NCBI GenBank assembly: GCA_000002445.1 | Contig: CP000070.1 | Span: forward strand, 224,001 to 288,000 | Length of the DNA: 64,000 nucleotides | Direction: 5' to 3' | From: Trypanosoma brucei | Lineage: Eukaryota | In this document: positions 11,926 to 61,283 of the stretch, piece after piece | How the letters are laid out: the number at the start of each line of letters is the position of its first letter | Position numbering within the stretch: the stretch's first letter is position 1 | Notes under the pieces: model-generated | What the model was told of the DNA's origin: nothing | Database searches by the model: none | Seen by the model: the letters and a program-made list of their open reading frames with translations, nothing else | Made by a program: the position numbers and the translations under genes

Positions 11926-13158
11926 ATGTCTCGTCGGCGTCCTAATGTGATGTTAACTATCCCTAAGAATACGCTACAAGTCTTTGATATGGGGTTAGAT
12001 TTCCGTTCTTACCTATCCCGCGTGGATGTCAATGGACTACCAGTTTTAGGCAATGTCGTATCCTATGAGGCATCAAAACTGACTGAAGTATTTACTCCGA
12101 CTGTAGGGTTGTTAGTGACGATACTGCACATGCTTGCTCATTGCACCTCAAGTTGCTCCGCCGTAGCTTGGCTGAAAGCCTATGATGCCATCCAAAAGAT
12201 GTATATCGAAAATTCAGAGGAAGAAAACACGGAAGCCGTTCGATACGCTGTGGAGGCTAGAGCGGCTATCAAGGATTATTTGACTGGTGACGCTGTACCC
12301 GGTACAAACCTCCTTTGTGAGAAATTGTTGACTCTTCTCGACCAGCAAAGTGGCATCCATGGTTCTCAAGCTCCATCTCAACGGAAGGTCCCGCGGGAAC
12401 CGAAGGGGGCTTTTTGCAACCTACATCTATCGGACCAAAAGTGCTACCAGGATTTTGCTTGTAATCAGCTTCATTTACAAGAAGTGAAGACGGTGCGTCA
12501 CAGGAAGATTTTTTACATGCGACTTATTGAAGTGCTAAAAGCGGAAAAGCGATCTCGCCAGCAAATCCGCCACCGAATAAAGGACTCAGTTTTCTTTGCC
12601 CGATATGGCAATAAGGTTACCGTTCAATGCCAGGGTAAATGGATTCCATTTTTCAAAACAGTTTATACGGACGGAAGGCTAGAGCAGGCGCTTCGAACTC
12701 AGCATTTCGCTTGTGGTGACAGCGCTTGCGCCGACGAAAATTGTCTGGGAATACATCCACAAGACCGGCGCGTTACCACGTCCAGTAAACTGATGGATCT
12801 TAATAACCCCGATGTAGTACTTCAACAGATAGAGGAAGAAGCGGAGCGACACCTGTCGATGGAGGGGGCATTCAACGATCACGAAGCAGAACATATCTCC
12901 GCAGCCGCAAGTTCATCTTCGATGCCTTCGCCTACATCGGAAATGTGGAGAAATACTGTAAGGGAATATGTGCGGCAAACGGGAATCCCACAGGTGGAGG
13001 CCGATGAGTCGTTACTCAGGACACTGCAAGATGCAAATGTCCTGGCCACACCAACGGCCTCAACAGAGAGCTTAACGCCACTCTTAGACGAACTCGATAT
13101 GCGCACGTTCAGCTCGAGCTCTCCGGTCAGAGAGCATCCCAATGCTGAAATAGGGTGA
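11926..13158 (+). CDS. Hypothetical protein, first gene of the plus-strand polycistron. No recognisable domain.
   Basis: Long ORF (track 11767..13158). The first 53 codons are pyrimidine-tract-derived low complexity. The likely start is MSRRRPNV at 11926, preceded by a polypyrimidine tract and AG dinucleotides. Coding-like, non-repetitive composition. Confidence 0.5.
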   Translation: MSRRRPNVMLTIPKNTLQVFDMGLDFRSYLSRVDVNGLPVLGNVVSYEASKLTEVFTPTVGLLVTILHMLAHCTSSCSAVAWLKAYDAIQKMYIENSEEENTEAVRYAVEARAAIKDYLTGDAVPGTNLLCEKLLTLLDQQSGIHGSQAPSQRKVPREPKGAFCNLHLSDQKCYQDFACNQLHLQEVKTVRHRKIFYMRLIEVLKAEKRSRQQIRHRIKDSVFFARYGNKVTVQCQGKWIPFFKTVYTDGRLEQALRTQHFACGDSACADENCLGIHPQDRRVTTSSKLMDLNNPDVVLQQIEEEAERHLSMEGAFNDHEAEHISAAASSSSMPSPTSEMWRNTVREYVRQTGIPQVEADESLLRTLQDANVLATPTASTESLTPLLDELDMRTFSSSSPVREHPNAEIG

Positions 13159-20268: not shown

Positions 20269-22019
20269 GGTGAAAGTACTGGTTCCCTGAGAGCGATAGC
20301 AATACAATCACCCTTCTTCACAATTCCGCTGTGATCTATATTATTTGTTTGATGTATTGGTCATTTCGGCGGTCTTGAGGCTAGTATGGAAAAGGAAGCA
20401 CGGAGATACAGGTGTCTTGGTCGTTGCAACTGGTTTAGTGCACAGAGGAGGATGGAAAGATATAATTAAAGGGTGACCGCTGGCGGTTGCGAGTTGGTCG
20501 AGAAGAGTTACGACCTGATGAAAGTGACGATTTGGGAACGGTAGGAGTGAAGAGGAGGGCCGCCCACAAGGCCGTTATTTCCACTATGTAATAATTTTAA
20601 AATGGTGGGGAAAATAAGGCAAGAAGGAAAAAAAAAATAAGAATAAGAAAGGCACGTACAGTTGAAGATTTTGATTTGTTGCCCTAACTCGTTCCCGCTT
20701 GTTAGTGTAAACCTTCCCCTTCGCGCTAGACTAAAGGGTTAAAACCCTGAGGTGAAGGACTGAAGGCTCTCCTTGTATATGTATTGGTATACTAATTTGA
20801 GTTGTCAGCACATATACTTATATACTTGAATATATGCGCATGCACGTGTGCGTGTATGTGTGTGGGTTTACACGACTGCTAGGTGGGCGCGATGGAGATA
20901 TACTTATGTTATCATGTGTGCTGTGGATGTTCGTGTTTTCAAATACACGTTGATTTGTTTGTGTTTGTGCTTGCGTTTTTTTTATGCCCTTAAATTTCAT
21001 CTCTTCCGTTTTAATATGTGCGTTTGATATGAGTTAGTTGCTGTTCACGCAGGGGAGTACAGGGCTACAAAAGGCTCACTGATGAAGGTAGAGTGACCTT
21101 CCCTGTTCTTTTCGGGAAAACGTGTGAGAGAAATGCAAAGGAAGAAGAGAAAATGATAATGATTGTAATAACAAATTGGTGAGATAGAATAAAAAATTTA
21201 AGTGAAAATGAAGGAGTGTGGTGGATACAGTACGTTTGTGTTTGTGTGTAGTGGAGTTGTTTTGGAGTCGGTGTGCTGAAAGGAATGAGAGGTGGAAGCA
21301 ATAAAAGTGAGAGAAAAGTATGTTATACGGAGCGGAGAAGAGAGAGAAAGAAGGGGGGAGGGACGGGGGAATTCACTGAGGGGGCGCGTGTGATGCTGCA
21401 TCATTTCCAAAAAAGGGTTAAATGGTTCCGTGTATCAGCTTGGTTTCCCCTGAGGAGAAGCTGTGTTGTACTCCACAAAGTGGGTAGAACTATCACTATG
21501 CATTTTCAGATGGCTTTTAACACACACACGCATAGTTCTTTGAATGGGTTCGGCTGTTCATAACACGGTTGTGCAAATACTTGTTTATCCTTGCGCATGC
21601 ATACTCTGTTTCTATGGGTCCTCTTTTGTGCTTCAGTTTGCCTAACAATGCAGTTTACCCTTCTGCGTATTTGGGTGTGCGTGCGTCTTCTCTGGTGCCG
21701 TTACCCTCATTGTTTTCTGTATCGGTTGCACTTCATTTTTTGCATCCGTTCTCCCCTTGTTTTCCTTTCGCTTTTATGCCTTTTTTGTTTTGGGGGACCC
21801 CAGGTGTGCATGACGATGCGTTGTTCTTTTTTTCCCCCCCGTTAGTCATTCATTTCTCCCCGTTTTCGTTGATTTTTTCCCTATCTACAATGCACGTGTA
21901 CATATGTCTGCAGTGTGCGGTATCATGTATGACATGTTAACCAATGACGAGGTAAAGATTTGACGTCTGGGAACCAACACGCATCCCCTCTCACGCTCCC
22001 GTATTCGTCCCCCCTTTAC

Positions 22020-22080
22020 TTTCTGTGTTCTTTTTCTTTTCTTTTTTCTTTTCTTTTTTTCTTTTCTGTTTTTTTTTTTA
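22020..22080. repeat. T-rich (TTTTC/TTTCT)n polypyrimidine tract.
   Basis: ttctttttcttttcttttttcttttctttttttcttttctgttttttttttt. Confidence 0.8.
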
Positions 22081-22542
22081 CTAATAGTTTATCTAACTTC
22101 ACTTTCTGCCACGACCACTCCCCGTCTCTTCCCGCTTGTCACTGCAGGGGAGAGTCGAGGGGGTGTTGCGACGCTCGTTTGGGACGAAGCGATTATTCAC
22201 GTAATGTGCCTCTCCTCCCTTTTGTCACAACTGATCCCGTCGGCAAGAGTGGCTTTTTTTTAAAAAAAATTCCCCTTCTTTTTTTTTCCCATTCATTACT
22301 TCTTTTCCCTCATATTCTGTGTTTTTCTTCCCCCTTTCTTCGGTAACACAGTTTATATTGTTTTGTAAGGCACCAGGCGTAACGTACGTGCCGTTTAATA
22401 TGAGAAGATATATAGTAACAATAATAATGATGGTTTTCTGTTTCTTCTTTTTTTCATTTGTGAGCCGGAAAAAAAAACCTACTATCCCACCTGCAATTTT
22501 TTCCCCTTTATATTTATTAATATTGTTAGTATTCTTCTGACT

Positions 22543-22615
22543 ACCATTATTATTATTATTATTACTATCACTATCACTATTGATTTTATTGTTATTGTTA
22601 TTCTTGTCATTTGGA
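22543..22615. repeat. (ATT)n / (ATC)n trinucleotide microsatellite.
   Basis: accattattattattattattactatcactatcactattgattttattgttattgttatt. Confidence 0.8.
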
Positions 22616-25600
22616 TCATTTTGTCCCCTCCACCGCATATGCTTTTTTTTTTTATTGGATGTGTTGAGTGGAGGGCTGCGAAACTAATGATATGGCCTCT
22701 CATTTGACAAGTGATTTCATTCGTAGTGGAAAGAAGCGAACGAATAGACGCAACAAATTGAAAACGGGTAGGCGAAGGAAAGGATGTATTTTTTTTTTTA
22801 AAAAAAAAAATGGAGTTTTCTCGCCTTGTGAGAGTATATAGGATCAGAAAGAGAGAAAGAGAGGGCAAAAAAAAAAAAGAAAGAAAAGGTGGAAGAAGAA
22901 GGAGGCGTTACATCACGGAAAGGAAGTTAACATTGTTTTGCGCCATCCGTTTCAAAGCTTTACGTACCCGCATGTACATAATCGTAAATAGTCCGCGGAT
23001 AGCGGATGCGCGGACTTGCAGTTAGTAAGGGTTTGGGAGAAGAAGATGTTTAATGGGGTGTAAAGTTTTTGATGTATGTGTGTGTGGTTATTAATATGAG
23101 TATATGGTGAGAAGAATATGGAAAGGAAAAAGGGGTGTAACGGAGTTTGGGTTCGGTGGCTGTAATTGGCTTTGGGCGCCGTTACTCCTCATAGTTTGAA
23201 AGCATCCATTTTCTTTTCTTTTCTTTTTTTTCTTTTTTTTTTTTTTAAACAGTCTCTTCGGATTCTTGTTTGCCATGTATATGAGTTTTTATTCACTCCC
23301 CACCCACTACCTTTTTCCCTCCGCAACGTCCCCTGCAAACCTGTTTTTTTTCCCCTTAATCCTTCTATCTTACCTGTTGTTCCTTTTTTTTTTTGGTTCT
23401 GTTGGTTAACTTCCGGGTTATCCACCAGCATCACTTGCTCTCATCCTGTAATTATAGTTTTTCAGGGACAGCACCTCGCAATGTATCGAAAGAACAAAAA
23501 TGGCATGAACGATGGGTTTGTACTTTCAGTGTGGGGAAAGGGTGTGGGTGGGAGGAGTGTAGAAGGATTTATGAACTTGGGTCTTCTTTATAAATAAATA
23601 ATATATATATATATACAAATTTGAGCGGTGCCAGCAGTGATTTTTTTTTTTCTTTGGTGGTGAGGAGGGAGGATTTCGTACGCAGCGTCGCGTGTTGCCT
23701 CCTCCGTTTTGTTTCACCTTTTGAACTTGTTGTGCTGTTAGGTGACAGTGAGAGGAAACTTTTTATGTATGTAAAAGGAGGCTGTGCAAACCTGAAGATA
23801 TGTATGGTGAGTTAGGGATACATCAGAAGGAAAGTGAAAAATCAAGTAAAGAGGTAAATGAGTGCATGTGCGGGTCGATGGAAGGGAGGTGAAAAAAAAA
23901 AAAGGAGAGATAAACATACGTATGAGTGTACCACTGCTTCAAGAGGTGTGATTTCTCAACACAGAGGAAATTTACTTTCCTCCACCTCTTTTTTATTTTA
24001 TTTTGTTGTTCCCCAAAGAATTAGTGCAGGGTATCGCCCAGTTTTTGTTGCCTGTTTCACTGCTGCTTCCTCTCTTTTTTTTTTTTCTTTACTTCATTCG
24101 TTGTGTCGGTCTTAGCCTGCTTTCGTTCGTGCCTCGGTTAGAATCACTGGCTATAACTGTGTCTCCATTGTGAATGTTTTTTGTCTTCCCCCGCTTTATC
24201 CCTTTGTTTGAATCAAAGCTGCTTTCTTCTTCCCCTCATCATCCTTTCACCATCTTTTTTTTTCCCCCTTCTTCTTCTTCCGTTGAATGATTGCACGACC
24301 CCCTTTTACCTTTTTCGTGTATAGATAATTTCCACAACAACTTTACATAACCCCGCGCATAGCATCGGTTATAGCCTATTACAGGCTTTTTCAAGTGATG
24401 TAAGTTCTGCGAGAGGTGTGTGGGTTAAACAAGGTGTAAAATGTGGTTTCTTTAAACACCCAAATTGAGGTGCTGGAGTCCCCCACATCACCACTTTACC
24501 CACCGCTACTGTTTTTTTTTTTGCCTTTTGTTTTGTTTTGTTCAGGGATAAGGCATCATATGCAACGATTGAGAAGCAGTCAAGCTTGCTTATGGTCGGG
24601 GAGGACATTTTGTGTTACCTCTTGCATTTTTTCCCCCTCCCCCTCCCGTGACGTTACATGGTTGAAGGTGAGAGAAGCTGAAAACAACGGACGTGTTGTA
24701 AAGTGAAGTGAAGCGAAGTGGAGTGGAGTGCTGCGTGTATGACTGTGGGATAGTGAGCTGAAGTTGGGGTTGCACTTCAGTACTGCAGCGTGTTTCTCGG
24801 TTTCTCTTTCTATTTCTGTGTGTGTGTGATTGCATTTGTGTTTATACGTGTATGTGTGTAAACGAAAAAAGGTTACCTGGTAGGAGTTAAGGTGTGCGGT
24901 GAGGGGCTTCTCAACATTTTCGGTTTGACTGCTTCCCTTCAGTGGAGCGTAATATCGCCCTTCTATTATCCGCATCTTCCTCTTCAGTATTCTTGAAAGC
25001 CGTGTTGAGCGACATGTGCTGATGGGACACACGGATTTCAAAAAAAAAAAGAAGGGAATGGAGCGTGTATGTATGCATGAAAGTGTGAATGACGGAGGAT
25101 GCGTATCTTACCTGACTTTACTTGATAGCGGTAAGGGAGAGCAGTGGGAGAGCGAAATGAAGGAAAAATGTGGTTAAGTGCACGGAGCAAAAAAAAAAAA
25201 AAAAGAAGGGATATAAAGTCCGTCATTGTAGTGGTGAAGGTGGAAAGAGGTAATTACGGAAAGAAAAAGGAAAGGTGAGCAATGCTGTCGGAAGGGTGTC
25301 ACAAGCTGAAAGAAGGAAATCTATGACGTAATGCGGCTGTTGTGTTTTCAAATACAGAGTTGTGGTAGGTATTCATAGATCCCTTCCCTCCCTCTTTACA
25401 TATATAAATATATATTTTACGACGTGGTGTTCACTGCCTCCAGTTCCTCATTTTTTTTTCTTGTGTTGCTCGCTTTGCTTTTTTCCCCCTGTGGTTACAC
25501 GGTGTTGTTTTTCCATTCGTCCTGATTCCAACCTCTTCCCTCTCACGGTGCTTCGGCGTCGTTTTGATTTGATGCTTGTGGTTCATTGGTTTCCTTGCAG

Positions 25601-26705
25601 TTTTTTGCCATCTGGTTAGTTGGTTGGCTCCTTCCTCCTTGTTGATGAACTGTCCACTTGTTTCGCAGTGCGAGTTGGTGAAACGGCGTGTGCTGTTCTG
25701 AAAAGTGTGTGGTCCCGTCGCTGCACTGCCATCTCACTTATCAGTTTGTTGCGCAGACTATCGTCGGCTAATGCTCTTTTTTTTTTTTCCACCATTCCCT
25801 GTCGTTGCTTACCTTTTGTAATCTTTCAAAGTCGTGTGATTCATCCCTACCTTAATTCTGTTATTTACATAACGAATTTTGTGTTCATTTTCAGCGTTGG
25901 TACCATCATTCTCATTCCTTCAACTTCTCATGGTCCAACAGGTGTGCAGAATGTGTGTATCGGGAAGCGGATTTAGCGGTGTGAGAGAGAGAGGGCGTGT
26001 GACCACATTAAAGGGGTGACGGCATTGATGCAAAGCAAACGAGAAGAAAGAGGATGAAAGGCAAAAAAAAGAAAAAAGAAATAATAGTTGAAAAGGTGAG
26101 GTGGGTACATATCACTCGTCCCACTTACAGTCGCTAAAAAGGGGGAAAAGAAGCAGAAGAAATTGAATTCAATTTAGCATCCCGAGTTCTTGGGTGCGTT
26201 GTTGATGTGGTTGGAGGGGGGAAAGTGGAGGACAGAGCTTCGGTTATATTGTATACGTTTGTATATATACATATATTTATGCATATGCACACCTGTGCTT
26301 GTGGGAGATTGTACGTCAAATAAGACTTACATGGACGGAAGGAAAAAAAAAAGAAGAAAAGAAGTTAGCAAGAAAAGGGGAACAGGTGATTGAGATTGTC
26401 CGCCTTTTATATTTTCTTCAGGACCTCTACTCCGCAGGAGTGATCTTTCCCCATACCATTATTCTTCACGTCGCACCACACTTATTGAAAATTTGGGTTA
26501 CTGGCAATAGCTTTTCGTGATCACAGTAGATTATTTTGTCTTATGCGATTAAGAGAACAACCGCATCTGTACTTTACGCTTTACTCCTTCTACCTCACTT
26601 GATTTATGTCTGAATTTTTTGTTCCCCCAGTAGCAACACCGATATAAGGGGGGCCTCTGCATTGAGAGCTAAATCGTAAGGACTAAGGGTTACTGTGCGG
26701 CTGAT

Positions 26706-33176: not shown

Positions 33177-35513
33177 ATGTCTGACAGTGGTGACGAATAC
33201 GAAAGGAGGGAGGACATCCTTCTGCAGGATGATATTAACCTGGCGGGGGCCAATGTTAATGGAGTGGACACTGATCCGTGCGGTTATTACGCATCGCTTG
33301 GCGTGTCGCAGGACTCCTCGCAGGCAGCGATCCGCCGTGCGTTTCTCCAATTAAGTCAAATTTTTCACACAGATAAGCACGTTGGTGAGGACGAAGAAAT
33401 TCAGGCACTTATGAACGAGCGATTCCAGCAACTGATGGAGGCGTACTCTGTGCTTTCTGACGAAGGGAAGCGGGCTGCGTATGATGCAAGCGGCAAGTTG
33501 GGTCTTAACCGCTACTCGCTCATTCCCAAAGAGATCACACAGAGAGAAGATATTTTGCGTTACATGTCTACTCTGGAGAGGGAAGCAGAACTGTTGAAGC
33601 TATCGAAATTGCTCTCTGCTAGTTCTAGGACTACCGTCTCGTATTCTGTCGATCATCTCACAAATTCCATGTGGAAACTTGGAACTTCTGCAAATGATAC
33701 TTTGCAGCAGCAGAGTAATGGTGTTGATACTGAGGAGGCAGGTACTGACGAGGGGGAGACGGAGACACCTCCTAAAGGTGACATAGCGGATGCGGCAAAC
33801 GGGGCGGAAGGAAGCAGTGCGCAACCTGTTCCACTCAACACGAGTGTCGCCGTACGAGAAGTGCAGCTAGATGGAAAGAACTTACTTGTGTTAATTCCCG
33901 GAGATGAGGTGCAGCAGCAGTTGCGGCAGCAGTTACAGCATTCGACTGGTGGTGGCAGTGGAGGGTCAGCGGCTCCTCTCAGCCCTGAGCAGCGCTTTGG
34001 TGGGGTCCCACTTGCAGCGAAATTACTGCTTGGGTTGTTACCCCGAAAACTCCATTTCGAACACTCCATCCACCACTATGCATCGCCGTCATTTAGTGTG
34101 CGAACGAAAACGGAAGCCCAGCACGAGGGGATGCGATCGGTTTTGCGGTGTACAGCGATAGCATCCTATCAACCCAATCCAGTGACATTATATTCTATTT
34201 CGTGGCGCCTGTCTGTCGCGAGGTTGCACATCGCTTGTACTTGGGAGCGCATACTCAACAACTTGTGGAGACTTAAATCAAAACTGGTACTGTTCAACAC
34301 CCAGTCTCTACTTCCCATGTATGAGCTGTCTCTTAAACGGATGCTGGCTGCTGGGTTGGAGATCGAAAACACGTGGGTTATGTCAATGAGAAACAGGGGC
34401 TTGTTCAGAACTACGATAGGGCAATCTACGCCTGAAGGTGCGCAACGAGGTCTGCAGTTTCTTGTTGGTTATCGCAGTGCAAATGTTTCTCTTTTCAGCA
34501 CTGCGCCTGTGGTGTGGGGGGGAGGGGAACCAGGCTGTGGGGGTGTTTCGAGGGGCGTGTTGGAGCATTCAGTGAGCGTAGATGCGTTGCGGGGCAGAGC
34601 GCACGTTGGCTTCTCCTCATGGTATACTATTTCGAAGTATAATCGGATTGGGGTCGGTTTTTCCACGGCCCTTCCATGTCCTCGTGGTCTTTCGAGGTAC
34701 GTCTCGCCATTTGTGGACCACCCCGAATACCTTTCTATCAATGAAATGTCATTTCTCTTAGGGAGGGGTGACCATCTTATTCGGATCCCTGTCGTCGTTT
34801 TCCACTCACCGAAAGTTCAAAGCGCCTTACTGTGGTTGACAGCTCCGGTGTTACTTTATCGTATTGGGCGGCTTGTTATGCGACCATATCAATCGGCTCG
34901 CATGGCGGCTCTGTATCGTCAAAATCGTTTGGACCATCGAACAGAGATGGATGTGGCCCGTGTGCGTGCCACTCACGAACAAAAGGCATTGCAGAGCAGC
35001 TCCCTCCGCAGTCGTATGGCGGAGGAGCAAATCGGTGGACTTGTTATAATCAATGCGAGATATGGCGTGCTTCAGCCGCGCTACCCGGAGTCGTTGGTTT
35101 TGCCACCGAAACAACCGAATGCCGCGGGTAACCGTTCTGAAGTTAGTGGAAGGCAACGGCAGACGTGGTGGAGGTTTTGGCGGGCGGGGAGGGGGACCCC
35201 CACGCCTTCGGAGTCCGTGACCGTGAACGGTAAAAAAAAAGACGAAGGTGAAGAAACCGAAGGCGATTCATCATCCTCAGTACTTGTGTTGGACGTAACG
35301 GTGCCGCTGCAAAACTTTGTTCGAGACTCTCAGCTTGTACTTCCAGAGGGATCCAAGAGTAAATTGGTTGGTTTCACCGACCCTGATCCCTTTACACGGG
35401 AAAGAAAGCAACTTAAAATTGTTTATAGGTTCCAGCGTCGGCGACATGTGGTTATTTTAGATGATGAAGATATCGTTCGACTGCCACAAAGGGAACATTT
35501 GGTTGAGTCGTAG
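33177..35513 (+). CDS. J-domain protein with a large C-terminal region. The J domain has HTD in place of the canonical HPD tripeptide.
   Basis: DPCGYYASLGVSQDSSQAAIRRAFLQLSQIFHTDKHVGEDEEIQALMNERFQQLMEAYSVLSDEGKRAAYDASGKLG aligns to the DnaJ J domain (YY..LGV..., KYHPDKN, AYEVLSD..KR..YD). The HPD position reads HTD. Confidence 0.75.
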   Translation: MSDSGDEYERREDILLQDDINLAGANVNGVDTDPCGYYASLGVSQDSSQAAIRRAFLQLSQIFHTDKHVGEDEEIQALMNERFQQLMEAYSVLSDEGKRAAYDASGKLGLNRYSLIPKEITQREDILRYMSTLEREAELLKLSKLLSASSRTTVSYSVDHLTNSMWKLGTSANDTLQQQSNGVDTEEAGTDEGETETPPKGDIADAANGAEGSSAQPVPLNTSVAVREVQLDGKNLLVLIPGDEVQQQLRQQLQHSTGGGSGGSAAPLSPEQRFGGVPLAAKLLLGLLPRKLHFEHSIHHYASPSFSVRTKTEAQHEGMRSVLRCTAIASYQPNPVTLYSISWRLSVARLHIACTWERILNNLWRLKSKLVLFNTQSLLPMYELSLKRMLAAGLEIENTWVMSMRNRGLFRTTIGQSTPEGAQRGLQFLVGYRSANVSLFSTAPVVWGGGEPGCGGVSRGVLEHSVSVDALRGRAHVGFSSWYTISKYNRIGVGFSTALPCPRGLSRYVSPFVDHPEYLSINEMSFLLGRGDHLIRIPVVVFHSPKVQSALLWLTAPVLLYRIGRLVMRPYQSARMAALYRQNRLDHRTEMDVARVRATHEQKALQSSSLRSRMAEEQIGGLVIINARYGVLQPRYPESLVLPPKQPNAAGNRSEVSGRQRQTWWRFWRAGRGTPTPSESVTVNGKKKDEGEETEGDSSSSVLVLDVTVPLQNFVRDSQLVLPEGSKSKLVGFTDPDPFTRERKQLKIVYRFQRRRHVVILDDEDIVRLPQREHLVES

Positions 35514-35945
35514 TTAGCCACCCTGCGTTCATACAGCGCTAATGTGTGTTTGTGGGGGAGGGGCTGAGGAAGGCGAAATATGTTTCAAGTCCGCCCCGGC
35601 TGGGTGTCATTATGCAGCAGCGGGAGACTCGGGAATATCTGTGGTGCCACCTCCCTCTGCGGAGGTGTGGTGTGGGGGAGGCTTAAACTGGTGTTTAGAC
35701 TGATTTGAACGAACGGTAGCGAATGCGGATGGTATGATTCGCTGTGTAATTATAATCTTTAAGGGTTTCCTTTTTATTCATTCGTGCCCTTTCACCGGCA
35801 ACGTAGGCATGCCGCCGGTGCCGTTTAAGCATACTTCATCATTTTCTCATTATAAAAGGTATTTGCCTTCCTTTGTGGTATCAACCCCTTGCCTGAACTA
35901 TTCAACCTGTCGTGTTGTTTCTTATAGGGGGCCGCTACAGGTTAC

Positions 35946-38027
35946 ATGACACGTTGCCGGCTCGTTGGTGCTTCTTCTGGTGGGAAATATATTTCTACTA
36001 CCAATGCAAAGACTCGCCCCGTGATGGGCTGTTTGAGGTTTGCCTCAAGATTGTCGGCCCTCGGATCGACTCAACAACCGAAGTTCTTCGCCCTGCCGCT
36101 GCTTGCAACAACACGTGGTTTCGGTCACCTTGTGCGCGAGGTAGATATGCGGGGCTTTCGAGGTGATTTTGGACAACTGCGACACAAGAACTTGGCGAGT
36201 ACACAACGGTATGTCACTGATGCCCTTGGAGCCAAGAAAAACGTAATATTTTGTGGTGCCTATCACACGGGGAAGTTAACAATTCTGAAGGCAATAGGTG
36301 AAGCGTGTGAGGCCCGGGGGAAGAAGGTCGCATACGTGTCGTGTAACCCTCAGCGCGCGTCTCGTTTCGGTGGTTTTTTGTTGTATCACTTTGTTGGGCT
36401 GCGTTACCTGTTCCGTAACGAGATTCCCTCACGAGACCAGTTGGATGGGGCGTTGGAAAGACATGCACGGCTTTGTGAATCTACATACGCTGGATGCGTA
36501 CCAAGTTTGAAGTCAGTTGATGTGTTGATATTCGATGCTGTGGATCAACTTGAACCCACTATTCTGGCGTCTATGGATGCGGTGTGTCGCCGTTTGCGAG
36601 GGAAACCGAATGACGCCTTTGGGGGCCTGCGTGTCTTTGCTGCAGCTGATTTCTGGCGTCTCCCGGTTCATCCCAGCAGCGACACTGGTGGCTATATCTT
36701 CCAACTAGATAATTGGGGGGAGCTGTTTCCAAAGCAGCATCTGCTGAAGAAAATCTATGGGCAGACAAAAGCACTTACCACACTTGTGAACAAGGCATAT
36801 TACGGCCAACTCTCTGCTGAGGATATTGAAGAACTTGAGGCGCGGTCATCGGCGGGAAGGACGGAAAGTGGAGCTGCCTGTGGTGGCTCAAAAAAGGAGG
36901 CTTCCGAGACAAGTGGAAGTTTTAGTGTCAGTGACGATGGCAGTCGCCAGGTGGAGGTTGAAGAGGAAGGAGCAGGCTCTGGTTTGTTGCCACCGCAGCG
37001 ACTAATTTCCAACGCTGAAGCCATTATCAAATTTACCTCACGTTTCCCGAAACAGCCGTCGATCCGTGTACTGCCACCGCGTTTTCGAACGCTGAAACGA
37101 ACGGAAATAGGGAATTACATTGTAAACATGATGGTTCAGTCCTCCACGCTGCATTCTTTTGGCCTCGTTGACTCACTGAACCTTGACATCGGTGCGTCCG
37201 TGCATCTCCTTTTTGATGGCACCGCAGACTTTGGTGTAACGGCAGGAACGGTTGGTGAGGTGTTGCAGGTAAAAGAACACGCGCTTGTTGTCCACTTTCC
37301 TTCCGTACATCGCACTGTGGATGTTCCTCGCATGCGAATTAGCGTTTACCACCCCTTCTACCCCGAGGTGCGGTATGAAGTTCAACAGTTTCCCCTATAT
37401 CCACGCCATTGTATCTCACCTATTAACATGTTGACGTATCATCACGCATACCAAGTGCACATTGACTGTCATCAACTTGCAGACACAAACGATCTGGGGA
37501 ATATACTTGCACGCATGCGTACCTTCGATGACTTTACAATCGAGCGCGTCCATGACTTTGCCCATTTGGATGGTATGGTACACGAGCCAACTCGAATTTA
37601 TTATCAGCGCATCGACAACCAACCCCTTTCTTCAGCGGCAGAGCAATGGTGCCGAAACTGCAAGTCTTATGTTTCAACCTCCGACTTCTACACCCACTGG
37701 GATAAGTGTGTTCGTCAGGTTCGTTGGTGTACCGTATGCAACACGCGTATCCCACTGGAACGGCTTGGCCCCCACCAGGAGAAGCATCAAATTGTGTTAT
37801 GCCTGGACTGCGGTCGTGCGGTTGAGTGGCGTCGGTGGGAGGGCCACCGGCTCACGTGTTCCGCAATGATGCGCGAGGTTTCACCTGAAAATGAATTCCT
37901 TCCGCTACGTACCCGCCAGCTGGCGTTAGAGATGGGTCTCGATAAACGTGATTTACATACAATGAAGGGCTTTAACCGCGGCATGCTCCCAAAGTCGCGA
38001 AAACAGTGCAACGGTGGAGAAGCTTGA
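35946..38027 (+). CDS. PIF1-family helicase-like protein with degenerate Walker A/B motifs (probable pseudo-helicase) and a C-terminal Cys/His-rich zinc-finger-like region.
   Basis: Colinear PIF1 motifs: [16 protein letters not shown] (vs PIF1 NIFYTGSAGTGKSILL; P-loop Ser/Thr replaced by Leu), [12 protein letters not shown] (vs ALVVDEISML; Walker B Glu replaced by Ala), [19 protein letters not shown] (vs FGGIQLIFCGDFFQLPPV). The C-terminus carries CRNCKSY...HWDKC...[45 protein letters not shown]. Confidence 0.65.
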
Positions 38028-39264: not shown

Positions 39265-40218
39265 ATGTCCTCCGGCGAACTGCAACAATCGACCCCCGGA
39301 GCGCCGCAAGATCTGGAAGAAATGCTCACTGCTCTGCGCAATGAGGCGGAAGCAGGAGCATCTGGTGGATCTACCAAACCCGAGAGAAGCCACCCAGCTG
39401 TTGCATTTTACTGTGGTAAACGTGCTGTGCGACTGCAGGTAGTACCAGATGGCACAGATATTTCGCATTCTGAGGACTCCACACTGTATGTTATTTCCCT
39501 TCATCAAGCACTCCTCCCTGCCCACTACAATGATTCATTTAGCGAGGAGGAGCATTCGTTACGTCTTTCTAGCTCTGAGGGGCTTGAGTTGTTGCGCACT
39601 AACTGGGAACTCCTACTGTGGCTACTCATGCCCTCTGTACAAATTAGCGCTTCGTGCGACCCGATGGACGGGGCTGATGACTCCTCACCAATATCTTCAT
39701 GGCGTGAATTGTGTTGTCCCTTGACATGGGAGGACTATAAATGTCTTCGACGACACGGTGTAATGGACCGCGTGCATTATAGTTACGTAGTGTTTCTGCG
39801 CTTCTACGGATGGCGGTTGCATAATGAGGAGAACGGAGTTCTTGACCGACATAGAAATTGGGAAGCAAGGTACAGATTACTCGTATCTCCGGATCAGTGC
39901 TGTAAGTGTTCGCTCGGAGGTGGTGTTGCTTGCGACGAAGTTGTCAGGCGTTGGACATGTGATGACGGGGTGCCTTGTCCCTACACCGCGCTAACCCGGA
40001 TTTTAAAGGTGTTGCTGGAATTGTGCTTCAATCGATACGCGGTGAATTTGGTTGCATTCATCATTGAAGAAATGAGCAAGGGGCGCTTGCTGTTTTTGCA
40101 GCAAATACTGGAAAGTGTTTGGTTCCCAATTGTCGTGAACTCCAAGCAGGTTGCCGATGCCGACAGGGATTACCTCAGTCGGAAGCTGCATCACCTCACT
40201 CACAGCGACTCCGACTAG
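39265..40218 (+). CDS. OGFr (opioid growth factor receptor conserved region) family protein.
   Basis: YSYVVFLRFYGWRLHNEENGVLDRHRNWEARYRLL ... YTALTRILKVLLELCFNRYAVNLVAFIIEE is colinear with the OGFr conserved region (...LLMLSFYGIRLEDRATGAV.RAQNFQPRFQNL ... NLRITRILKSLGELGLEHFQAPLVRFFLEE). Confidence 0.45.
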   Translation: MSSGELQQSTPGAPQDLEEMLTALRNEAEAGASGGSTKPERSHPAVAFYCGKRAVRLQVVPDGTDISHSEDSTLYVISLHQALLPAHYNDSFSEEEHSLRLSSSEGLELLRTNWELLLWLLMPSVQISASCDPMDGADDSSPISSWRELCCPLTWEDYKCLRRHGVMDRVHYSYVVFLRFYGWRLHNEENGVLDRHRNWEARYRLLVSPDQCCKCSLGGGVACDEVVRRWTCDDGVPCPYTALTRILKVLLELCFNRYAVNLVAFIIEEMSKGRLLFLQQILESVWFPIVVNSKQVADADRDYLSRKLHHLTHSDSD

Positions 40219-41230: not shown

Positions 41231-43843
41231 ATGCACTGTTGTAAGGTTTTTTCGTTTCGCCTCACGGCAGGCCTTCTGCAGCGGCTGCCTATGCCGATGC
41301 CTCCGCCGCGACCAGGAGTAAGCGTCAACATGCAGCATGCGGTTGAAATAGAGGCGAAACGGCGGGTGGAGCTTGACGAGGCCACGCGCGCCCGGTACGT
41401 CGTTGTGAAGGAAGAAACTCGTGCTTCGGGGGACCGTGTCATTGGCATAGACCTCGGTACTACGAACAGCTGTATTTCATATATCGACAAGAAAACGAAC
41501 AGGCCAAAGATAATTCCATCTCCAACGGGGTCGTGGGTTTTTCCCACCGCAATTACGTTTGATAAAAGTCACAAGGTTCGCTTATATGGTGAAGAGGCCC
41601 GGGCCTGCGTACGGACGAGTGCGAGCGCGACGTTGTGCAGTGGAAAGCGCCTTATTGGCAGGGGTGTTGGTGAGTTGGGCCGCGTACAGTCCCAGCTCCA
41701 TAAGACAAATATGGTTACGCTTAACGAACGGGGAGAGGTGGCAGTAGAAATTATGGGTCGCACCTATACAGTAACCCATATCATAGCCATGTTCCTGCGC
41801 TATCTGAAAAAGGAGGCAGAAAAATTTCTCAAGGAACCGGTGAATGCCGTTGTAGTGAGTGTTCCTGCATTCTTCACCCCACAACAGAAGGTAGCGACGG
41901 AGGATGCTGCACTTGCCGCGGGTTTTGATGTCCTGGAGGTAATTGACGAGCCATCCGCCGCTTGTTTGGCTCATACTGTTTTGCAGCCTAGTAATGCCTC
42001 ATCAAGGGAACATCTATCGGGATCTAAGCGTATTGTACGTTCGCTGGTGTTTGATTTGGGCGGTGGCACACTGGACTGTGCTGTGATGGAAAATGATCGG
42101 CGACGGGGTACTTTTACACTTGTTGCGACACATGGTGACCCATTGCTTGGCGGCAATGATTGGGATGCTGTATTGTCTCAGCATTTTTCTGACCAATTTG
42201 AGCGTAAGTGGCGAGTACCTCTGGAGGACGCAGAAGGAAACGTGGGGCAAGGTGTAGCTACGTACCGCCAGCTCCTTCTTGAGGCTGAGAAGGCAAAGAT
42301 TCATTTTACGCACTCAACGGAGCCATATTATGGCTACAATCGTGCATTTCACTTTTCAGAGAAGCTTCGTGACATTGTTCCACTCGAGGCCACGCTCACG
42401 CTTGAGGAATACATTGAACTAACTCGGCCATTGAGGGTTCGCTGCGTGGAATGCCTCAACAAGCTTTTCGACCACACAAGCATACGTCCAGCAGACATTG
42501 ACAATGTACTACTTGTGGGGGCCATGACACGTGACCCCCCAATACGCCATCTTCTGACAGAGTACTTTGGTCGACATGTGGAATCTGAAGCCTCGTGTCC
42601 TGCCGACTACGCTGTAGCCATCGGTGCCGCCGTCCGCGGTGCCATGCTTCAGGGTGGATTTGATGACTTATTGTCGAACACACGATTTGTCACGGGGACC
42701 GCACAAGCCTTGAAGCAGGGTGGTTTCCTGCGTCGCTGCTGCAATCGCATTGGATCCTTAGTCAGTAGCAGCGTTAATCCAAATGCCATTGGCCAGCGCT
42801 GGCGCGGGCGCGCAAAAGGGCTCTCTGATGAAGAAATAGCTAACTATGCAAAGGAGCTTGTTGAGTTTGAGGCAGCGTGCGACCGCCGGCTGCTGCTTGA
42901 AAGAGCAGAGAACGACGCAAACTTCGTGATGCGGCGTGTAACAGCCGATTCGAGCAAGCGGCAAGGGATGCAGGAAAAACGTGTGCGGCAGCTAAGTGAA
43001 CAACTGAAGTTCTGGCAGTATATGGTGCACAACTTTCATGATCACGAAGACGAGTTACTACGAACGGTACGAGAATTGGAGCAAGCACTGGATGAATTGG
43101 AAGGGCTGGCAGAGGATAACACGTCGGGCCTCACAACCGCAGGGACAGTTGACTTCTCCTCAGTGACCCCTGTGAACCATTGCGAGGAAGAAGAGCGAGA
43201 CTGCAGCAGTGTTTCTGCAGCGTCAAGATCGGCACAGCTTAGGACGGCACATGGGGACGGAAAGCTGAAGGAGCGCACACAGGACGAGGAGGGGGAGAAA
43301 CCGAAAGGTCGTAAAATCATGAGGCGAGCTGTACCGCTGCCAAGGGCAAGTGCAGAAGCGCAGGAATTGGTGGAGGCGGGGCATCCCGCACTGCGAGGTG
43401 CCGATGTTTCCATGACAGAGTCCACGAGAAGTGCATTTTTCGAGGCACAGGTGGAGGAACGGGCATGGCGGGAGCCACCAACACCGCCTGGTGAGCATGG
43501 CTCATGGCAGGAGGTGAAGCGTGCGGTTGACGCTGGTGAGCCCGTTGGGAGCCCAATTGGTCTTCAGGAGTTACAGCGCCCAATGACACATGAAGAGATG
43601 CTACAGGTACTTAACAATATCGCACCCATTGATGATCCGGTGAGCGAGGAGCACGCCAGGAAGAGGGACCACTCCATTGATATGCGAACCATGACTATTG
43701 TTGAGGGTGCCGTAGATATGGTCGCGCTGCAGGAACTACTTGAGGAAGAAGCCAAACGGGCGGAGGAGCTTCAGCGTGCTCAGAAGAAGGGTGAGAAGCA
43801 ACTTGTAGCCGATTCATCAGCCAAACTGTTCGCGATGGACTAG
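41231..43843 (+). CDS. Atypical Hsp70-like protein: a recognisable Hsp70 nucleotide-binding domain followed by a ~400-aa non-canonical, coiled-coil/acidic C-terminal region. Possible N-terminal targeting sequence.
   Basis: VIGIDLGTTNSCISY (phosphate-1), KRLIGR, VVSVPAFFTPQQKVATEDAALAAGFDVLEVIDEPSAACLAH, VFDLGGGTLDCAVM (phosphate-2), DPLLGGNDWD, VLLVGAMTRDPPIRHLL. No canonical substrate-binding domain or EEVD follows. Confidence 0.75.
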   Translation: MHCCKVFSFRLTAGLLQRLPMPMPPPRPGVSVNMQHAVEIEAKRRVELDEATRARYVVVKEETRASGDRVIGIDLGTTNSCISYIDKKTNRPKIIPSPTGSWVFPTAITFDKSHKVRLYGEEARACVRTSASATLCSGKRLIGRGVGELGRVQSQLHKTNMVTLNERGEVAVEIMGRTYTVTHIIAMFLRYLKKEAEKFLKEPVNAVVVSVPAFFTPQQKVATEDAALAAGFDVLEVIDEPSAACLAHTVLQPSNASSREHLSGSKRIVRSLVFDLGGGTLDCAVMENDRRRGTFTLVATHGDPLLGGNDWDAVLSQHFSDQFERKWRVPLEDAEGNVGQGVATYRQLLLEAEKAKIHFTHSTEPYYGYNRAFHFSEKLRDIVPLEATLTLEEYIELTRPLRVRCVECLNKLFDHTSIRPADIDNVLLVGAMTRDPPIRHLLTEYFGRHVESEASCPADYAVAIGAAVRGAMLQGGFDDLLSNTRFVTGTAQALKQGGFLRRCCNRIGSLVSSSVNPNAIGQRWRGRAKGLSDEEIANYAKELVEFEAACDRRLLLERAENDANFVMRRVTADSSKRQGMQEKRVRQLSEQLKFWQYMVHNFHDHEDELLRTVRELEQALDELEGLAEDNTSGLTTAGTVDFSSVTPVNHCEEEERDCSSVSAASRSAQLRTAHGDGKLKERTQDEEGEKPKGRKIMRRAVPLPRASAEAQELVEAGHPALRGADVSMTESTRSAFFEAQVEERAWREPPTPPGEHGSWQEVKRAVDAGEPVGSPIGLQELQRPMTHEEMLQVLNNIAPIDDPVSEEHARKRDHSIDMRTMTIVEGAVDMVALQELLEEEAKRAEELQRAQKKGEKQLVADSSAKLFAMD

Positions 43844-58373: not shown

Positions 58374-58844
58374 TGCTGGCATTTTTTTTGCTGTTTCTGA
58401 ATTGACCTCGGGATCGCCGACGATCACACGACCCTCCACCCTCCACCCTCCAAGCCCAAACCCATTTTTTGAGTCGTTTCTTTTTTTTTTTTTTAAATAA
58501 CTATTTTATTTCCTCTCCCTTATATTTGTGACGCCCAGGATATTTTGTTTCTGTTTGGAGACGATTGTTGTGAGTTCTAGAACTGCACCCTGAAAAAGGA
58601 TTAAAAAAAAAGGGGGCGATGGGATGTTTGCCATTTTACGTTTTTTTGTTTTTCTTTTTATGTCGTGCATTCTTTTAACGTTTGTTGCCGTCTCCATTTT
58701 GTCTTTGTTTATTATTATTATTTTTTTTTAGGGTTGATTCAGGGGTGGTGGGTGAGGAGGCCCTTGGCGGGGAATTTATCTCTTTCTCTTTTCTTCTGTT
58801 GACTTTGTTTTTCCTTTTATCCACAGGGTAGCGATGAGGCAAGG

Positions 58845-58849
58845 ATGTC

Positions 58850-58884
<35 letters not shown>
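58845..58884. repeat. (TA)n microsatellite.
   Basis: catacatatatatatatatatatatatatatattta. Confidence 0.85.
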
Positions 58885-58890
<6 letters not shown>

Positions 58891-61258
58891 GAAGGAATGT
58901 ACAAACATGAAACAAATAAGCGGATATTTAAATATATAAGTATATATGTACTTGTGTAATGTGAGTGAGTAAATAAATAAGTGAATGAGTCTGCGTGTGT
59001 TTCGAATATTGACGAAGTGAATCTATGAACTAAGTTATGTATTCTTTTCCCCCCTTTCCAGTATCCCTTGTATTTTCGGGCGCTGATGTTCCTTTTGTTC
59101 TGTTCTGTTGTTGTTCTTTTCTAGAGACTTCGTTCCAAAGTACGAAAATGCCTCGTTGGTCTCTTTTCTTGTTCTTATTCTGTCTGTGAGATGCATTGCT
59201 TCATCTTAAATTTTCTGGCTTCACCTTTCGTTTTTTTTTATTGTTTTCGCCTTACTACCGCTTCCGTGACCATCGAGAGGCGCACGTTGCTTTTGTTATG
59301 GTGCCTACGTATGCGTTGCCCATATTCCTTCACATTACATTACATTACATCACTGTTGTGAGCTCAATAACGTACTCAAGGAGACGGCACCACAACGAAC
59401 GAGAGCGAAATGAATAAATGGAGGACAGGTGGCGAAAAAGAAAAAGTAAGAAAAAAGAGGAAAATAATAAAAGAGAAAGAAATAGAGAAGTAGAGAAAAC
59501 AATTACAATAATAAAGCAAAGCATATATCATGACGGTAACTACAATGTCTCGTGCTTTCCCCCACACATCAACGGCCCCCAAAATCTCGTCTTCCAATCA
59601 GTTCTTTCTTTCCTTTTTTGTTTTGTTGTTGTCGGCATTGGCTTTGCTTTATCAACCTATATCTATATCTATCCATATTTATATATTTTTATGATTTGAA
59701 GTGACGCAACCTGCCGGTTCGCTTTATGTTAACTGAGTGGGTGGGAACAAAAGAAATTGTAAATAGCTAATTTTGTTTTCCTTTAATTGGGACAATTTTA
59801 GCGAGTACATGAGATCTTTTCCCCTTCCGTTTTTTTGCCTCTATTGTTTATGACACAAACACAAACACACACACATATGCTCAAAAAGGGGGGAAAAAGA
59901 GAGGAATACTTGTGTATGCACAAAGAAGAAAGAAAAAAAAAGAAGAATGAAATATAGAAGGGAGCTATGGGAAGAGCAATTTTCATTGTGGTTATTTCTA
60001 CTACTATTATGAGGAACGGTAACATTGTTATTATTTAGCTTTAGTGTGCGACTATGTTACCCCATTTTGTGTTTGTTTGTTTAATTGTTATGTTCGTTCT
60101 TATGGATATGTGTAACAAACACATCATCTTTATCTTCTATGCGCCGGGCAGGAATGATCTTGTGAATGGCGTCTTTTGCTTTTTTTTGTATGTGATGGAA
60201 AGAGAGAGTTCAAGAAGGGGGAAGGGGAGTAAAAAAAAATAAATAAAAGAAAACATCATGCTTGCATGCATAAGCATTAATGTATGTCTTTGTGCGTAGT
60301 ACATCGTTGCTCCAGAACACAGAAATGCAATATCTCACCAAAGTAAGGAGAGAGGAGACATAATGCGTGATACTATTTTTTTCTTTTGAAAAAGATGAAA
60401 AAGAGATAAAGCAACAGGGGATGAAAGGTTTAAAATTATGCTTTGCTAATCGGTTACTATTATCACTACGATTATCATTACAATTACTGTTGTCATTTTT
60501 TTTTTTTAAGTTTTAATAAAAAGAAAAGCAACAATACCATCATCGTTGCGTCGTAGAGGATACACACTTCTTTGCTACATCCCCTGTTATTTTTCCATTT
60601 TAAAACAAAATTTGTGGTGCTGACTAATGGAAGTTAAGTGGAGCGCTCATGCACCAACGAAGAAGGACGAGGAGAGGAGGGAAATGCGGAAAGGAAAAGG
60701 AAAAAAGAAAGATCGAAACCTTCAAAGAGAGTCTAAAGGGGTGGCGTGCCGCTTACATAAAAGTAACTCCATACAAGACGTACACAAATATACATATACC
60801 TGTTCATCCTTTGATTTTCCCTTTCTTCCTCTTCTTTTTCATTTCGGCCTTGAAGCGACATTAATACTTAAAGATCCCTTGTTTTACATCTCACAGTTTA
60901 AGATTTGTGAAGAGTGTGCATGTTTTGCTCGGCAATAAATGGGAAAATAAAGACGTGAAATATATGTATGTATGTATATATATGTATTTCGTCCTCTCTC
61001 ACACCCTCGTGTGTTCCACACGCTCAAGGGCGAACTTTTGTTGATTCTTTTTATTATTTTTCTCTTGAATGCTCTTTTACTTCCTCATAAGTTTTTATTA
61101 GGAAGTTTAATTGTTTATTACCCTTTAAAAAAAAATACGTATTTTAATTTGTTTTTGCTGTTTTTTGCGAAAAAAAAATTCACAAAAATTTCGTAAAATA
61201 AGTTGTCTTTTTCCTCCTTTTCTTTTCTTTTTTCTTTTAAATTCGTTCTTCCCGCTGT

Positions 61259-61283
61259 TTATATATATATATATATATATATG
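61259..61283. repeat. (TA)n microsatellite.
   Basis: tatatatatatatatatatatatatg. Confidence 0.85.

Follow-up and report, generated by a model that had tools for sequence, protein, structure and literature searches.

TbPIF8 of Trypanosoma brucei: a PIF1-type helicase fold with a degenerate ATPase site, TRAF/XAF1-like zinc fingers and a probable non-motor role at the kinetoplast

An open reading frame (ORF) within a 64,000-nucleotide stretch of Trypanosoma brucei DNA (contig CP000070.1, positions 224,001 to 288,000; hereafter the window) encodes a protein that resembles a PIF1 helicase in which key catalytic residues are replaced. The ORF (35946..38027, forward strand) runs intact from ATG to stop, and its translation (693 aa plus stop) is identical (100 % over 693 aa) to the T. 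brucei TREU927 protein XP_845724.1 / UniProt Q57VU6, annotated as "ATP-dependent DNA helicase-like PIF8" (Tb927.7.1000); a Leptomonas orthologue also carries the annotation '(TbPIF8)'. The ORF is TbPIF8, a nuclear-encoded, mitochondrially targeted paralogue of the PIF1 (SF1B) helicases, and the dead PIF1-type helicase recognized in the initial annotation of this DNA is this already known protein, so that the description was correct but not new. TbPIF8 has reportedly been named as such since Liu et al. 2009 (Mol Cell 35:490), and Wang, Englund & Jensen 2012 (Mol Microbiol 83:471) are said to have found it essential for kinetoplast DNA (kDNA) maintenance, probably in a non-enzymatic capacity. 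In its passages on PIF8, a 2022 review describes the protein as the most divergent mitochondrial PIF, likely without helicase activity, as mitochondrial and associated with the kDNA disc, and as essential by RNAi, with disorganization of kDNA upon depletion and a requirement in kDNA organization (PMC10719067). TbPIF8 also serves as a reference kinetoplast marker (PMC6529878), and is involved in the segregation of kDNA (PMC6254582). The kinetoplastid origin and the structural role in mitochondrial DNA that were proposed from the nucleotide sequence agree, respectively, with the match to the T. brucei protein and its kinetoplastid orthologues, and with the published work. As it stands the result is of small consequence, the protein being already named and characterized; the residue-level reading in the initial annotation nevertheless proved accurate, and is now documented motif by motif across the PIF8 clade. 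Rfam and tRNA scans of the whole window returned no matches. The features of the locus are collected in Table 1.

Table 1. Features of the TbPIF8 locus, with positions counted from the first nucleotide of the window.
Feature	Coordinates	Strand	Basis or conservation
Candidate trans-splice acceptor (polypyrimidine tract, then AG)	35908..35927	+	From sequence; 19 nt upstream of first ATG
Complete TbPIF8 ORF	35946..38027	+	Sequence identity to Tb927.7.1000 / UniProt Q57VU6
Likely mitochondrial presequence, ~60 aa	35946..36125	+	Composition, low conservation, pLDDT <50; localization according to the PIF8 passages of PMC10719067
Alternative start M27	36024-36026	+	Sequence
PIF1-like helicase core (RecA-like 1A, 2A; SH3-like 2B)	36126..37625	+	aa 61-560; alignments, AF2, Foldseek
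Degenerate Walker A	36255..36281	+	G104, G109, K110 invariant; Ser/Thr position L or M in 23 orthologues
Degenerate Walker B	36522..36545	+	D197 invariant in 23 orthologues; catalytic Glu position A or S
PIF1 signature motif running into degenerate motif III (AADFWRLPV)	36567..36674	+	R215, FGGL invariant
Motif IV equivalent (LLKKIYGQT)	36741..36767	+	Alignments to PIF1 and of 23 orthologues
Acidic low-complexity linker inside core, variable length	36861..36995	+	aa 306-350; pLDDT <50, pI 4.1
SH3-like 2B domain, all-beta	37158..37355	+	aa ~405-470; AF2, hhalign, Foldseek
Degenerate motif V (..SPINMLT..) and motif VI equivalents	37401..37520	+	hhalign, alignment of 23 orthologues
HEPTRIYY, PIF8-specific motif joining core to fingers	37581..37604	+	H546-I551, Y553 invariant; Y552 at least 90 %
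Zinc finger 1, C-x2-C-x11-H-x3-C	37650..37709	+	C569, C572, H584, C588 invariant
Zinc finger 2, C-x2-C-x11-H-x3-H	37728..37787	+	C595, H610 invariant; C598, H614 at least 90 %
Zinc finger 3, C-x2-C-x11-H-x3-C	37800..37859	+	C619, C622, H634, C638 invariant
Highly conserved C-terminal segment, ending LPK	37866..37994	+	Short predicted helix, low model confidence; PIF8-type proteins only

A Pfam scan with the T. brucei protein alone produced no PIF1 match, only matches at noise level, and homology was therefore established by other routes. Searched against PDB sequences with phmmer, TbPIF8 matches human PIF1 (E 4.7e-7); PF05970 matches 16 of the 23 aligned orthologues (best E 1.3e-8); and hhalign pairs the protein with canonical PIF1 over 373 columns (probability 98.7 %, E 3e-16). 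The AlphaFold2 (AF2) model (pLDDT 78, pTM 0.76) predicts two RecA-like domains, 1A and 2A, with an inserted SH3-like 2B domain, and the top 33 matches to this model in a Foldseek search of the PDB are all PIF1 structures, the best being human PIF1 (E 9e-20, ~490 aligned columns, target-normalized TM 0.71-0.73). Membership of the PIF1 family, with colinear motifs, is thereby borne out by sequence, profile and fold, and the motifs lie at the positions originally assigned to them when aligned by phmmer and hhalign.

Walker A reads GAYHTGKL in alignment with GSAGTGKS and GPAGSGKS of human and canonical PIF1, Walker B reads LIFDAVD against VIDEIS and IIIDEIS, and a counterpart of motif III aligns to ICGDFLQLPP of PIF1. 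Intact canonical Walker motifs elsewhere in the protein are ruled out, as a regular-expression scan of all 693 aa found no GK[ST], no hydrophobic run followed by D[DE], and no 'DE' dipeptide. Among 23 kinetoplastid orthologues (mean column identity 52 %), residue 111 is Leu in 21 and Met in two and never Ser or Thr, and residue 198 is Ala in 16 and Ser in seven and never Glu. The claimed losses of the Mg-coordinating Ser/Thr from the P-loop and of the catalytic Glu from motif II (DAVD, versus DEIS) are thus fixed across these orthologues, as the conservation check proposed in the initial annotation was meant to establish. The initial annotation also considered the FGG...GDF.QLPPV stretch degenerate, which holds for the GDFxQLPP half, rendered as AADFW[R/E/A/H/Q]LPV versus GDxxQLPP with a variable Gln position, but not for the FGG part, since R215 and F225-G226-G227-L228 of the PIF1 signature motif are intact and invariant. 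Beyond the motifs considered at that time, motifs IV, V and VI are degenerate too: in TbPIF8, YGQ stands for the WRQ of motif IV, the Arg of which is replaced by Gly, Val, Tyr or Thr among the orthologues, motif V has INMLTYH instead of TIHKSQG, and motif VI has, across the orthologues, LA[R/Q/H/L/K] instead of LSR. Other elements of the site are preserved. G104, G109, K110 and D197 are invariant and T108 nearly so, position 112, directly after the Leu or Met, is Thr, Ser or Asn, and the pocket region is modeled at pLDDT >90. The invariance of the P-loop glycines, K110 and D197 suggests continuing selection on the nucleotide pocket, which may still bind nucleotide without hydrolyzing it, or hydrolyze it weakly.

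Ahead of the core, the N-terminal 60 aa contain nine Lys and Arg and no Asp or Glu (pI 11.7), and are disordered in the model. Trypanosoma orthologues have long, unconserved N-termini, and those of Leishmaniinae, Phytomonas and Strigomonas begin just before LVREVD. The candidate trans-splice acceptor upstream of the ORF would fit translation beginning at M1.

The Cys/His-rich tail, already taken for a zinc-finger module in the initial annotation, comprises three C-x2-C-x11-H-x3-[C/H] units (aa 569-588, 595-614 and 619-638), of whose 12 zinc ligands ten are invariant among the 23 orthologues and two are shared by at least 90 % of them; these ligands and the TRAF-type matches below sustain that identification. 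Each unit is predicted to adopt a beta-beta-alpha fold in a model of the tail. Among PDB sequences, a profile of the tail matched TRAF6 at E 0.007 and FLN29/TRAFD1 at E 0.13, with modest support from a Foldseek search of the tail model (TRAF6 5vo0, E 9e-4; FLN29 2d9k, prob 0.97; TRAF4 2eod, TM 0.46). Among 1.8 billion representative proteins, the nearest matches outside PIF8 (E down to 4e-15) carry TRAFD1-XIAF1_ZnF (PF21366), Znf_XAF1_N (PF23580) or zf-TRAF (PF02176) domains. No curated Pfam finger model matched above its gathering score, Znf_XAF1_N (0.0035) and CEP104_ZnF (0.0019) each appearing in three of the 23 members. By sequence and by model, the fingers of TbPIF8 are closest to those of TRAF6 and of the TRAFD1/XAF1 type, with predicted zinc binding. 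Fingers of the TRAF type do not by themselves distinguish a protein partner from a nucleic-acid partner. The array is present in 23/23 aligned orthologues, as is the conserved MMRE..DKRDLH segment that follows; in the library of 1.8 billion proteins, every match extending past the fingers into this segment had an E of 1.7e-28 or better, and was either in a fragment or at the C-terminal end of a protein of PIF8 size. We found no description of the TRAF/XAF1 type of these fingers in the literature searched, the primary papers (Liu 2009; Wang 2012) being outside its coverage, and a search combining PIF8, zinc finger and kinetoplast retrieved the review PMC10719067 alone, in which the available passages on PIF8 do not mention fingers. 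The array, together with its clade-specific segment, offers a lead for mutagenesis and interaction mapping.

Considered together, these features make it likely that TbPIF8 is a structural or organizing factor of kDNA devoid of motor activity, in which a dead helicase body is joined to an interaction platform formed by the fingers and C-terminal segment. TbPIF8 keeps the whole PIF1 fold (1A, 2A and SH3-like 2B) and the signature motif, and has lost the residues for Mg-ATP coordination, water activation and gamma-phosphate sensing, a loss which would most likely leave ATP hydrolysis uncoupled from translocation. The helicase body would then be a static nucleic-acid-binding or clamp-like module, and the three TRAF/XAF1-type fingers and invariant C-terminal segment would link the kDNA disc to partner proteins or to further DNA. 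We infer a lack of ATPase activity from the substituted motifs, DNA binding by the core from the retained, modeled fold, and likewise that the fingers serve as an adaptor.

Relatives beyond the 23 aligned orthologues indicate how such a protein may have arisen. In some of these, Arg, Phe or Val occupies the Walker A Ser/Thr position, one has His at the position of the Walker B Asp (D197), and the Walker B DE pair was found in no member of the wider PIF8 clade. The orthologue in the early-branching prokinetoplastid Apiculatamorpha retains GKS, GGDYFNLP and LLSR, and a second deep-branching clade member has GKT. The GKS kept in Apiculatamorpha suggests stepwise decay of the ATP site, and more canonical ATP sites in early-branching kinetoplastids provide a natural comparison for when and why activity was lost. 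Tentatively, we entertain a joint reading in which a helicase was converted to a scaffold step by step in the PIF8 clade, the finger array and invariant C-terminal segment being the real working end which tethers partners to kDNA. The last common kinetoplastid ancestor would already have had the fused array of three TRAF/XAF1-type fingers and have lacked the Walker B Glu, and the P-loop Ser/Thr, near-canonical motif III and motif VI Arg would have been lost later, after the split from Prokinetoplastina, because the Apiculatamorpha protein keeps all three. The partners tied to kDNA by the tail may be, for example, KP37, KP45 or the mitochondrial RNA polymerase, and the pocket preserved around K110 and D197 might serve as a switch by binding nucleotide. 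A paper on prokinetoplastids (PMC7859406) makes no mention of PIF proteins or helicases, and no description of prokinetoplastid PIF8 orthologues was found in the literature searched, again with the coverage of primary papers noted above (Liu 2009; Wang 2012).

The assignment of roles to the two ends of the protein could also be reversed, with the zinc-finger tail binding DNA, for example a feature of kDNA, and the dead core mediating protein interaction or oligomerization. The fingers (net charge +4) and the C-terminal segment (+3) are indeed basic, invariant Trp, Arg and Lys are abundant in the tail, lower-ranked Foldseek matches include the DNA-binding C2H2 arrays of ZBTB7A, CTCF and BCL11A, and there is a weak match to an Sgf11-type finger, a kind which touches nucleosomal DNA. 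However, these C2H2 matches have probabilities of 0.1-0.5 and rmsd of ~9-14 Å, and the best and only significant matches are to fingers of the TRAF6, TRAFD1, XAF1 and Cep104 types, which are mainly protein-interaction modules; we regard this arrangement as somewhat unlikely. Less probable still is that PIF8 works as a switch that binds nucleotide, or hydrolyzes ATP very slowly, and in which occupancy by ATP or ADP sets conformation, grip on DNA or choice of partners without translocation. The invariant pocket residues (G104, G109, K110 and D197, and nearly so T108) and the confident model of this region would accord with such a switch, as would the GKS, GGDYFNLP and LLSR of Apiculatamorpha and the GKT of the second deep member, which imply that part of the clade may bind Mg-nucleotide. 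Against this, the Mg-binding Ser/Thr, catalytic Glu, motif III Gln, motif IV Arg and motif V are jointly missing in the 23 orthologues, in which the motif VI Arg position also varies, and tolerance of Leu, Met, Arg, Phe or Val at the Ser/Thr position across the clade speaks against a precise Mg-binding geometry. Finally, there is next to no chance that this is an annotation artifact or a pseudogene decaying in one strain, as the absent Pfam PIF1 match for the T. brucei protein and the mutation of all catalytic motifs might suggest, because the substitutions recur at 52 % mean column identity and are fixed across 23 orthologues, which, with an intact ORF of 693 aa, full-length orthologues in Trypanosoma, Leishmania, Phytomonas, Strigomonas, Leptomonas, Novymonas, Porcisia and deeper lineages, and essentiality by RNAi according to the PIF8 passages of the published review (PMC10719067), rules this out.

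With TbPIF8 as previously described (Tb927.7.1000) there is no difference, the ORF encoding the same protein of the same strain. The canonical PIF1 SF1B helicases, such as human PIF1, S. cerevisiae Pif1 and Rrm3, and Bacteroides Pif1, share with TbPIF8 the three-domain fold, colinear motifs and the conserved FGG-containing signature motif, and a role in mitochondrial DNA maintenance is common to both, TbPIF1 and TbPIF5 being counted among the canonical members in the literature. In contrast to these, TbPIF8 has an acidic stretch inserted into its core and a tail of three fingers at its C-terminal end, with Leu or Met in place of the Walker A Ser/Thr, and Ala or Ser in place of the Walker B Glu; the Gln of motif III and the Arg of motif IV are gone, motif V is unrecognizable and the motif VI Arg is unconserved. 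The fingers of TRAF6, TRAFD1/FLN29 and XAF1 are the best sequence and structure matches of the tail, a reciprocal profile search lands on the same families, and they share with it the C-x2-C-x11-H-x3-C/H spacing, a tandem period of ~25 residues and the beta-beta-alpha fold. Unlike them, the fingers of TbPIF8 are fused to a helicase-like core and sit in a mitochondrion, outside the context of ubiquitin and TRAF signaling, and the array is followed by a conserved segment specific to PIF8.

The ORF at 35946..38027 (+), in which the initial annotation had proposed an ATPase-dead PIF1 paralogue with a zinc-finger tail, runs uninterrupted from ATG to stop (693 aa), and its product is 100 % identical to the T. 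brucei brucei TREU927 protein XP_845724.1 (AAZ12165.1; UniProt Q57VU6), named 'ATP-dependent DNA helicase-like PIF8' in the database; the Leptomonas pyrrhocoris orthologue carries '(TbPIF8)' in its annotation. Given this identity and the published work, the ORF is a correct rediscovery of the known protein TbPIF8; the observation itself is confirmed, and the reading supported. Published work describes it as the most divergent mitochondrial PIF and regards helicase activity as unlikely. According to the 2022 review PMC10719067, which draws on the original studies by Liu et al. (2009) and Wang et al. (2012), PIF8 (Tb927.7.1000) is one of three essential PIFs and lies mainly on the kDNA disc face distal to the basal body, and RNAi against it leads to moderate kDNA loss, disorganized kDNA and a decrease of approximately 50 % in nicked/gapped minicircle intermediates, in agreement with the mitochondrial, kDNA-related role first supposed. 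In both T. brucei and L. mexicana, PIF8 serves as the standard against which kinetoplast position is marked (PMC6529878), and a role in kDNA segregation is cited (PMC6254582). Residues 1-60 contain nine Lys and Arg and no Asp or Glu (pI 11.7), are unconserved in the orthologue alignment and disordered in the AlphaFold2 model, and are typical of a mitochondrial presequence, consistent with the published localization. M1 is a plausible start, since a polypyrimidine tract and AG are found 19 nt 5' of the first ATG, although translation may alternatively begin at M27 (MGCLRF...).

Searched against all PDB chain sequences with phmmer, PIF8 significantly matched PIF1 helicases only (human PIF1, E 4.7e-7; yeast Pif1, 1.5e-5; Candida Pif1, 5e-5), and a 23-orthologue profile aligned with a canonical PIF1 (P0038) at 98.7 % probability (hhalign; E 3e-16, 373 columns) in the same motif register, bearing out the claimed colinearity. 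The AlphaFold2 model built from these 23 sequences (mean pLDDT 78, pTM 0.76) has a core mostly at pLDDT of at least 90, with low confidence limited to residues 1-56, an acidic linker (308-345) and about the last 30 residues. The top 33 Foldseek matches in the PDB were all PIF1 helicases, led by human PIF1 (E 9e-20, about 490 aligned columns, target-normalized TM 0.71-0.73), with a Helitron helicase, RecD2, Dda and a herpesvirus helicase ranking after them; these matches indicate that PIF8, as modelled, keeps the full 1A/2A/2B architecture. The acidic insertion in the core differs in length among the aligned orthologues: it is only a few residues long in some, exceeds 100 by a wide margin in others, and is longest in Leishmaniinae.

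Features of PIF8 and of neighbouring genes (nucleotide positions in the window; aa, residues of PIF8)
Feature	Position	Strand	Remarks
PIF8 ORF	35946..38027	+	
Walker A equivalent GAYHTGKL	aa 104-111		pairs with GSAGTGKS of human PIF1 (phmmer)
Walker B equivalent FDAVD	aa 196-200		LIFDAVD pairs with LVIDEIS (phmmer)
Motif III equivalent [10 protein letters not shown]	aa 233-242		pairs with ICGDFLQLPP (phmmer)
Motif IV			WRQ to YGQ (hhalign, canonical PIF1 P0038)
Motif V			TIHKSQG to INMLTYH (hhalign, P0038)
Motif VI			LSR to LAR, Arg position varying among orthologues (hhalign, P0038)
Acidic low-complexity insertion in helicase core	36861..36995; aa 306-350	+	modelled as disordered
Three Cys/His units, C-x2-C-x11-H-x3-C/H	aa 569-588, 595-614, 619-638		
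DNAJC11-like protein	33177..35513	+	upstream neighbour; Pfam DnaJ 8e-14, DnaJ-like_C11_C 1e-33
317-aa ORF	39265..40218	+	two genes downstream; partial OGFr_N match (Pfam, 2e-11)
Hsp70-family ORF	41231..43843		near the DNAJC11-like gene

All motif strings on which the initial annotation rested are present in the ORF, and the substitutions recur across the aligned orthologues. Full-length or near-full-length relatives number 36, among them proteins of Trypanosoma (vivax, grayi, cruzi, rangeli, conorhini), Phytomonas, Strigomonas, Leishmania, Porcisia, Leptomonas and Novymonas; 23 were aligned (mean column identity 52 %). The Walker A Ser/Thr site (position 111) is Leu in 21 and Met in two of the 23, and the Walker B Glu site (198) is Ala in 16 and Ser in seven, as the postulated losses of both residues require. 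Variation extends to the Gln of motif III (R, E, A, H or Q) and the Arg of motifs IV (G, V, Y or T) and VI (R, H, K, Q or L). The FGG...GDF.QLPPV motif, described as degenerate, is so only in its GDFxQLPP half, whereas the PIF1 signature (R215, F225-G226-G227-L228) is invariant, as are the PIF8-specific blocks LVREVD, SDTGGY, QFPL, DTNDLGN and HEPTRIYY. By this pattern, the ATP-site substitutions are ancestral and fixed. P-loop residues G104, G109 and K110, and Walker B D197, are likewise unchanged in all 23 orthologues, which makes a nucleotide-binding switch the main rival to the non-motor role favoured below. GK[ST], a hydrophobic run followed by D[DE], and the DE dipeptide each have zero occurrences in the whole 693 aa, so the foreseen refutation, canonical motifs elsewhere in the protein, does not apply. 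A pseudogene is ruled out by conservation across the 23-sequence alignment.

A single 693-aa PIF8 sequence (P0188) is common to T. b. gambiense and T. equiperdum and clusters at 90 % with the TREU927 protein. T. equiperdum is dyskinetoplastic, so the ORF has stayed intact in a lineage that can do without complete kDNA, probably owing to the recency of the kDNA loss. Two orthologues from JGI metagenome assemblies (P0013, P0033) are labelled 'energy-coupling factor transporter ATP-binding protein EcfA2' by their source, an evident P-loop-driven mis-annotation.

Among more divergent tail-bearing relatives, the residue after the Walker A GK is R, L, F or V in most sequences, and the one after the Walker B D is S, A or G; DE occurs at Walker B in none of those aligned. 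P0051, from the prokinetoplastinan Apiculatamorpha spiralis (EukProt EP00759), bears the same three-finger tail together with a canonical P-loop (GIEYSGKS), Walker B IIDD, motif VI LLSR and a motif III close to canonical (GGDYFNLP), and P0052, encoded on a 1.39-Mb ENA contig, keeps LSGKT and IVDD; P0047 has His at the Walker B Asp position, and P0054 is a fragment without the Walker region. The GKS, GGDYFNLP and LLSR of P0051 and the GKT of P0052 suggest that the clade lost its ATP site step by step. On the simplest reading of these few sequences, made without an explicit phylogeny, loss of the catalytic Glu and gain of the finger tail would both predate the radiation of kinetoplastids, and the remaining ATP-site residues would have decayed later.

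Elsewhere in the window, the J domain of the DNAJC11-like protein reads 'HTDKH' in place of the Hsp70-activating HPD tripeptide normal in J proteins, and may be unable to stimulate Hsp70. OGFr_N, partly matched by the 317-aa ORF, is the opioid growth factor receptor conserved region. From 11767 on, every ORF of 250 aa or more is on the + strand, the sole - strand example being 9001..9903, and the sign of the GC skew flips at around 6-10 kb; 1..12000 resembles a strand-switch region where polycistronic transcription units diverge. Positions 20300..26700 and 58400..61400 lack ORFs of at least 250 aa and overlap the lowest-GC bins (0.38-0.45, vs about 0.50 elsewhere). Scans of the whole 64 kb for tRNAs and Rfam families gave no hits.

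The predicted Cys/His-rich tail holds up: the ligands of its three units are invariant save C598 and H614, missing from one divergent sequence, and each unit is predicted to fold as beta-beta-alpha. Among PDB sequences, a 13-sequence tail profile matched the fingers of TRAF6 at E 0.0074 and the zf-TRAF domain of FLN29/TRAFD1 at E 0.13, and for the tail model Foldseek placed TRAF6 first (E 9e-4, prob 1.0), then Cep104, RNF125, FLN29 and TRAF4. Against 1.8 billion representative proteins, matches fell into two groups: about 20 representatives, PIF8-sized with a C-terminal tail or fragments, gave matches that ran on from the fingers to the C-terminal segment (all E <= 1.7e-28), and after a gap a second group, starting at 3.8e-15, matched in the fingers alone, in many cases with 5-19 repeats in an array. 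When ten finger-only proteins were scanned with Pfam, they contained TRAFD1-XIAF1_ZnF (9/10), Znf_XAF1_N (8/10) or both (7/10), and some zf-TRAF or XAF1_C. From the profile, structural and reciprocal matches we infer that the PIF8 fingers are TRAF/XAF1-type, though their own scores fall under Pfam's thresholds. The segment after them ([34 protein letters not shown]) ranks with the best-conserved stretches of PIF8, and the profile found no match to it beyond the PIF8 clade in the 1.8 billion representatives.

A PIF1 fold without hydrolysis residues, a presequence-like N-terminus, conserved TRAF-type fingers, a clade-specific C-terminal segment and the published phenotype are together best fitted by a non-motor kDNA organizing factor, in which DNA would be held by the inactive helicase body and partners brought in by the tail; the ligand of the fingers may be protein or DNA. 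In both sequence and structure, the closest matches to this tail are fingers of the TRAF6, FLN29 (TRAFD1) and XAF1 type.
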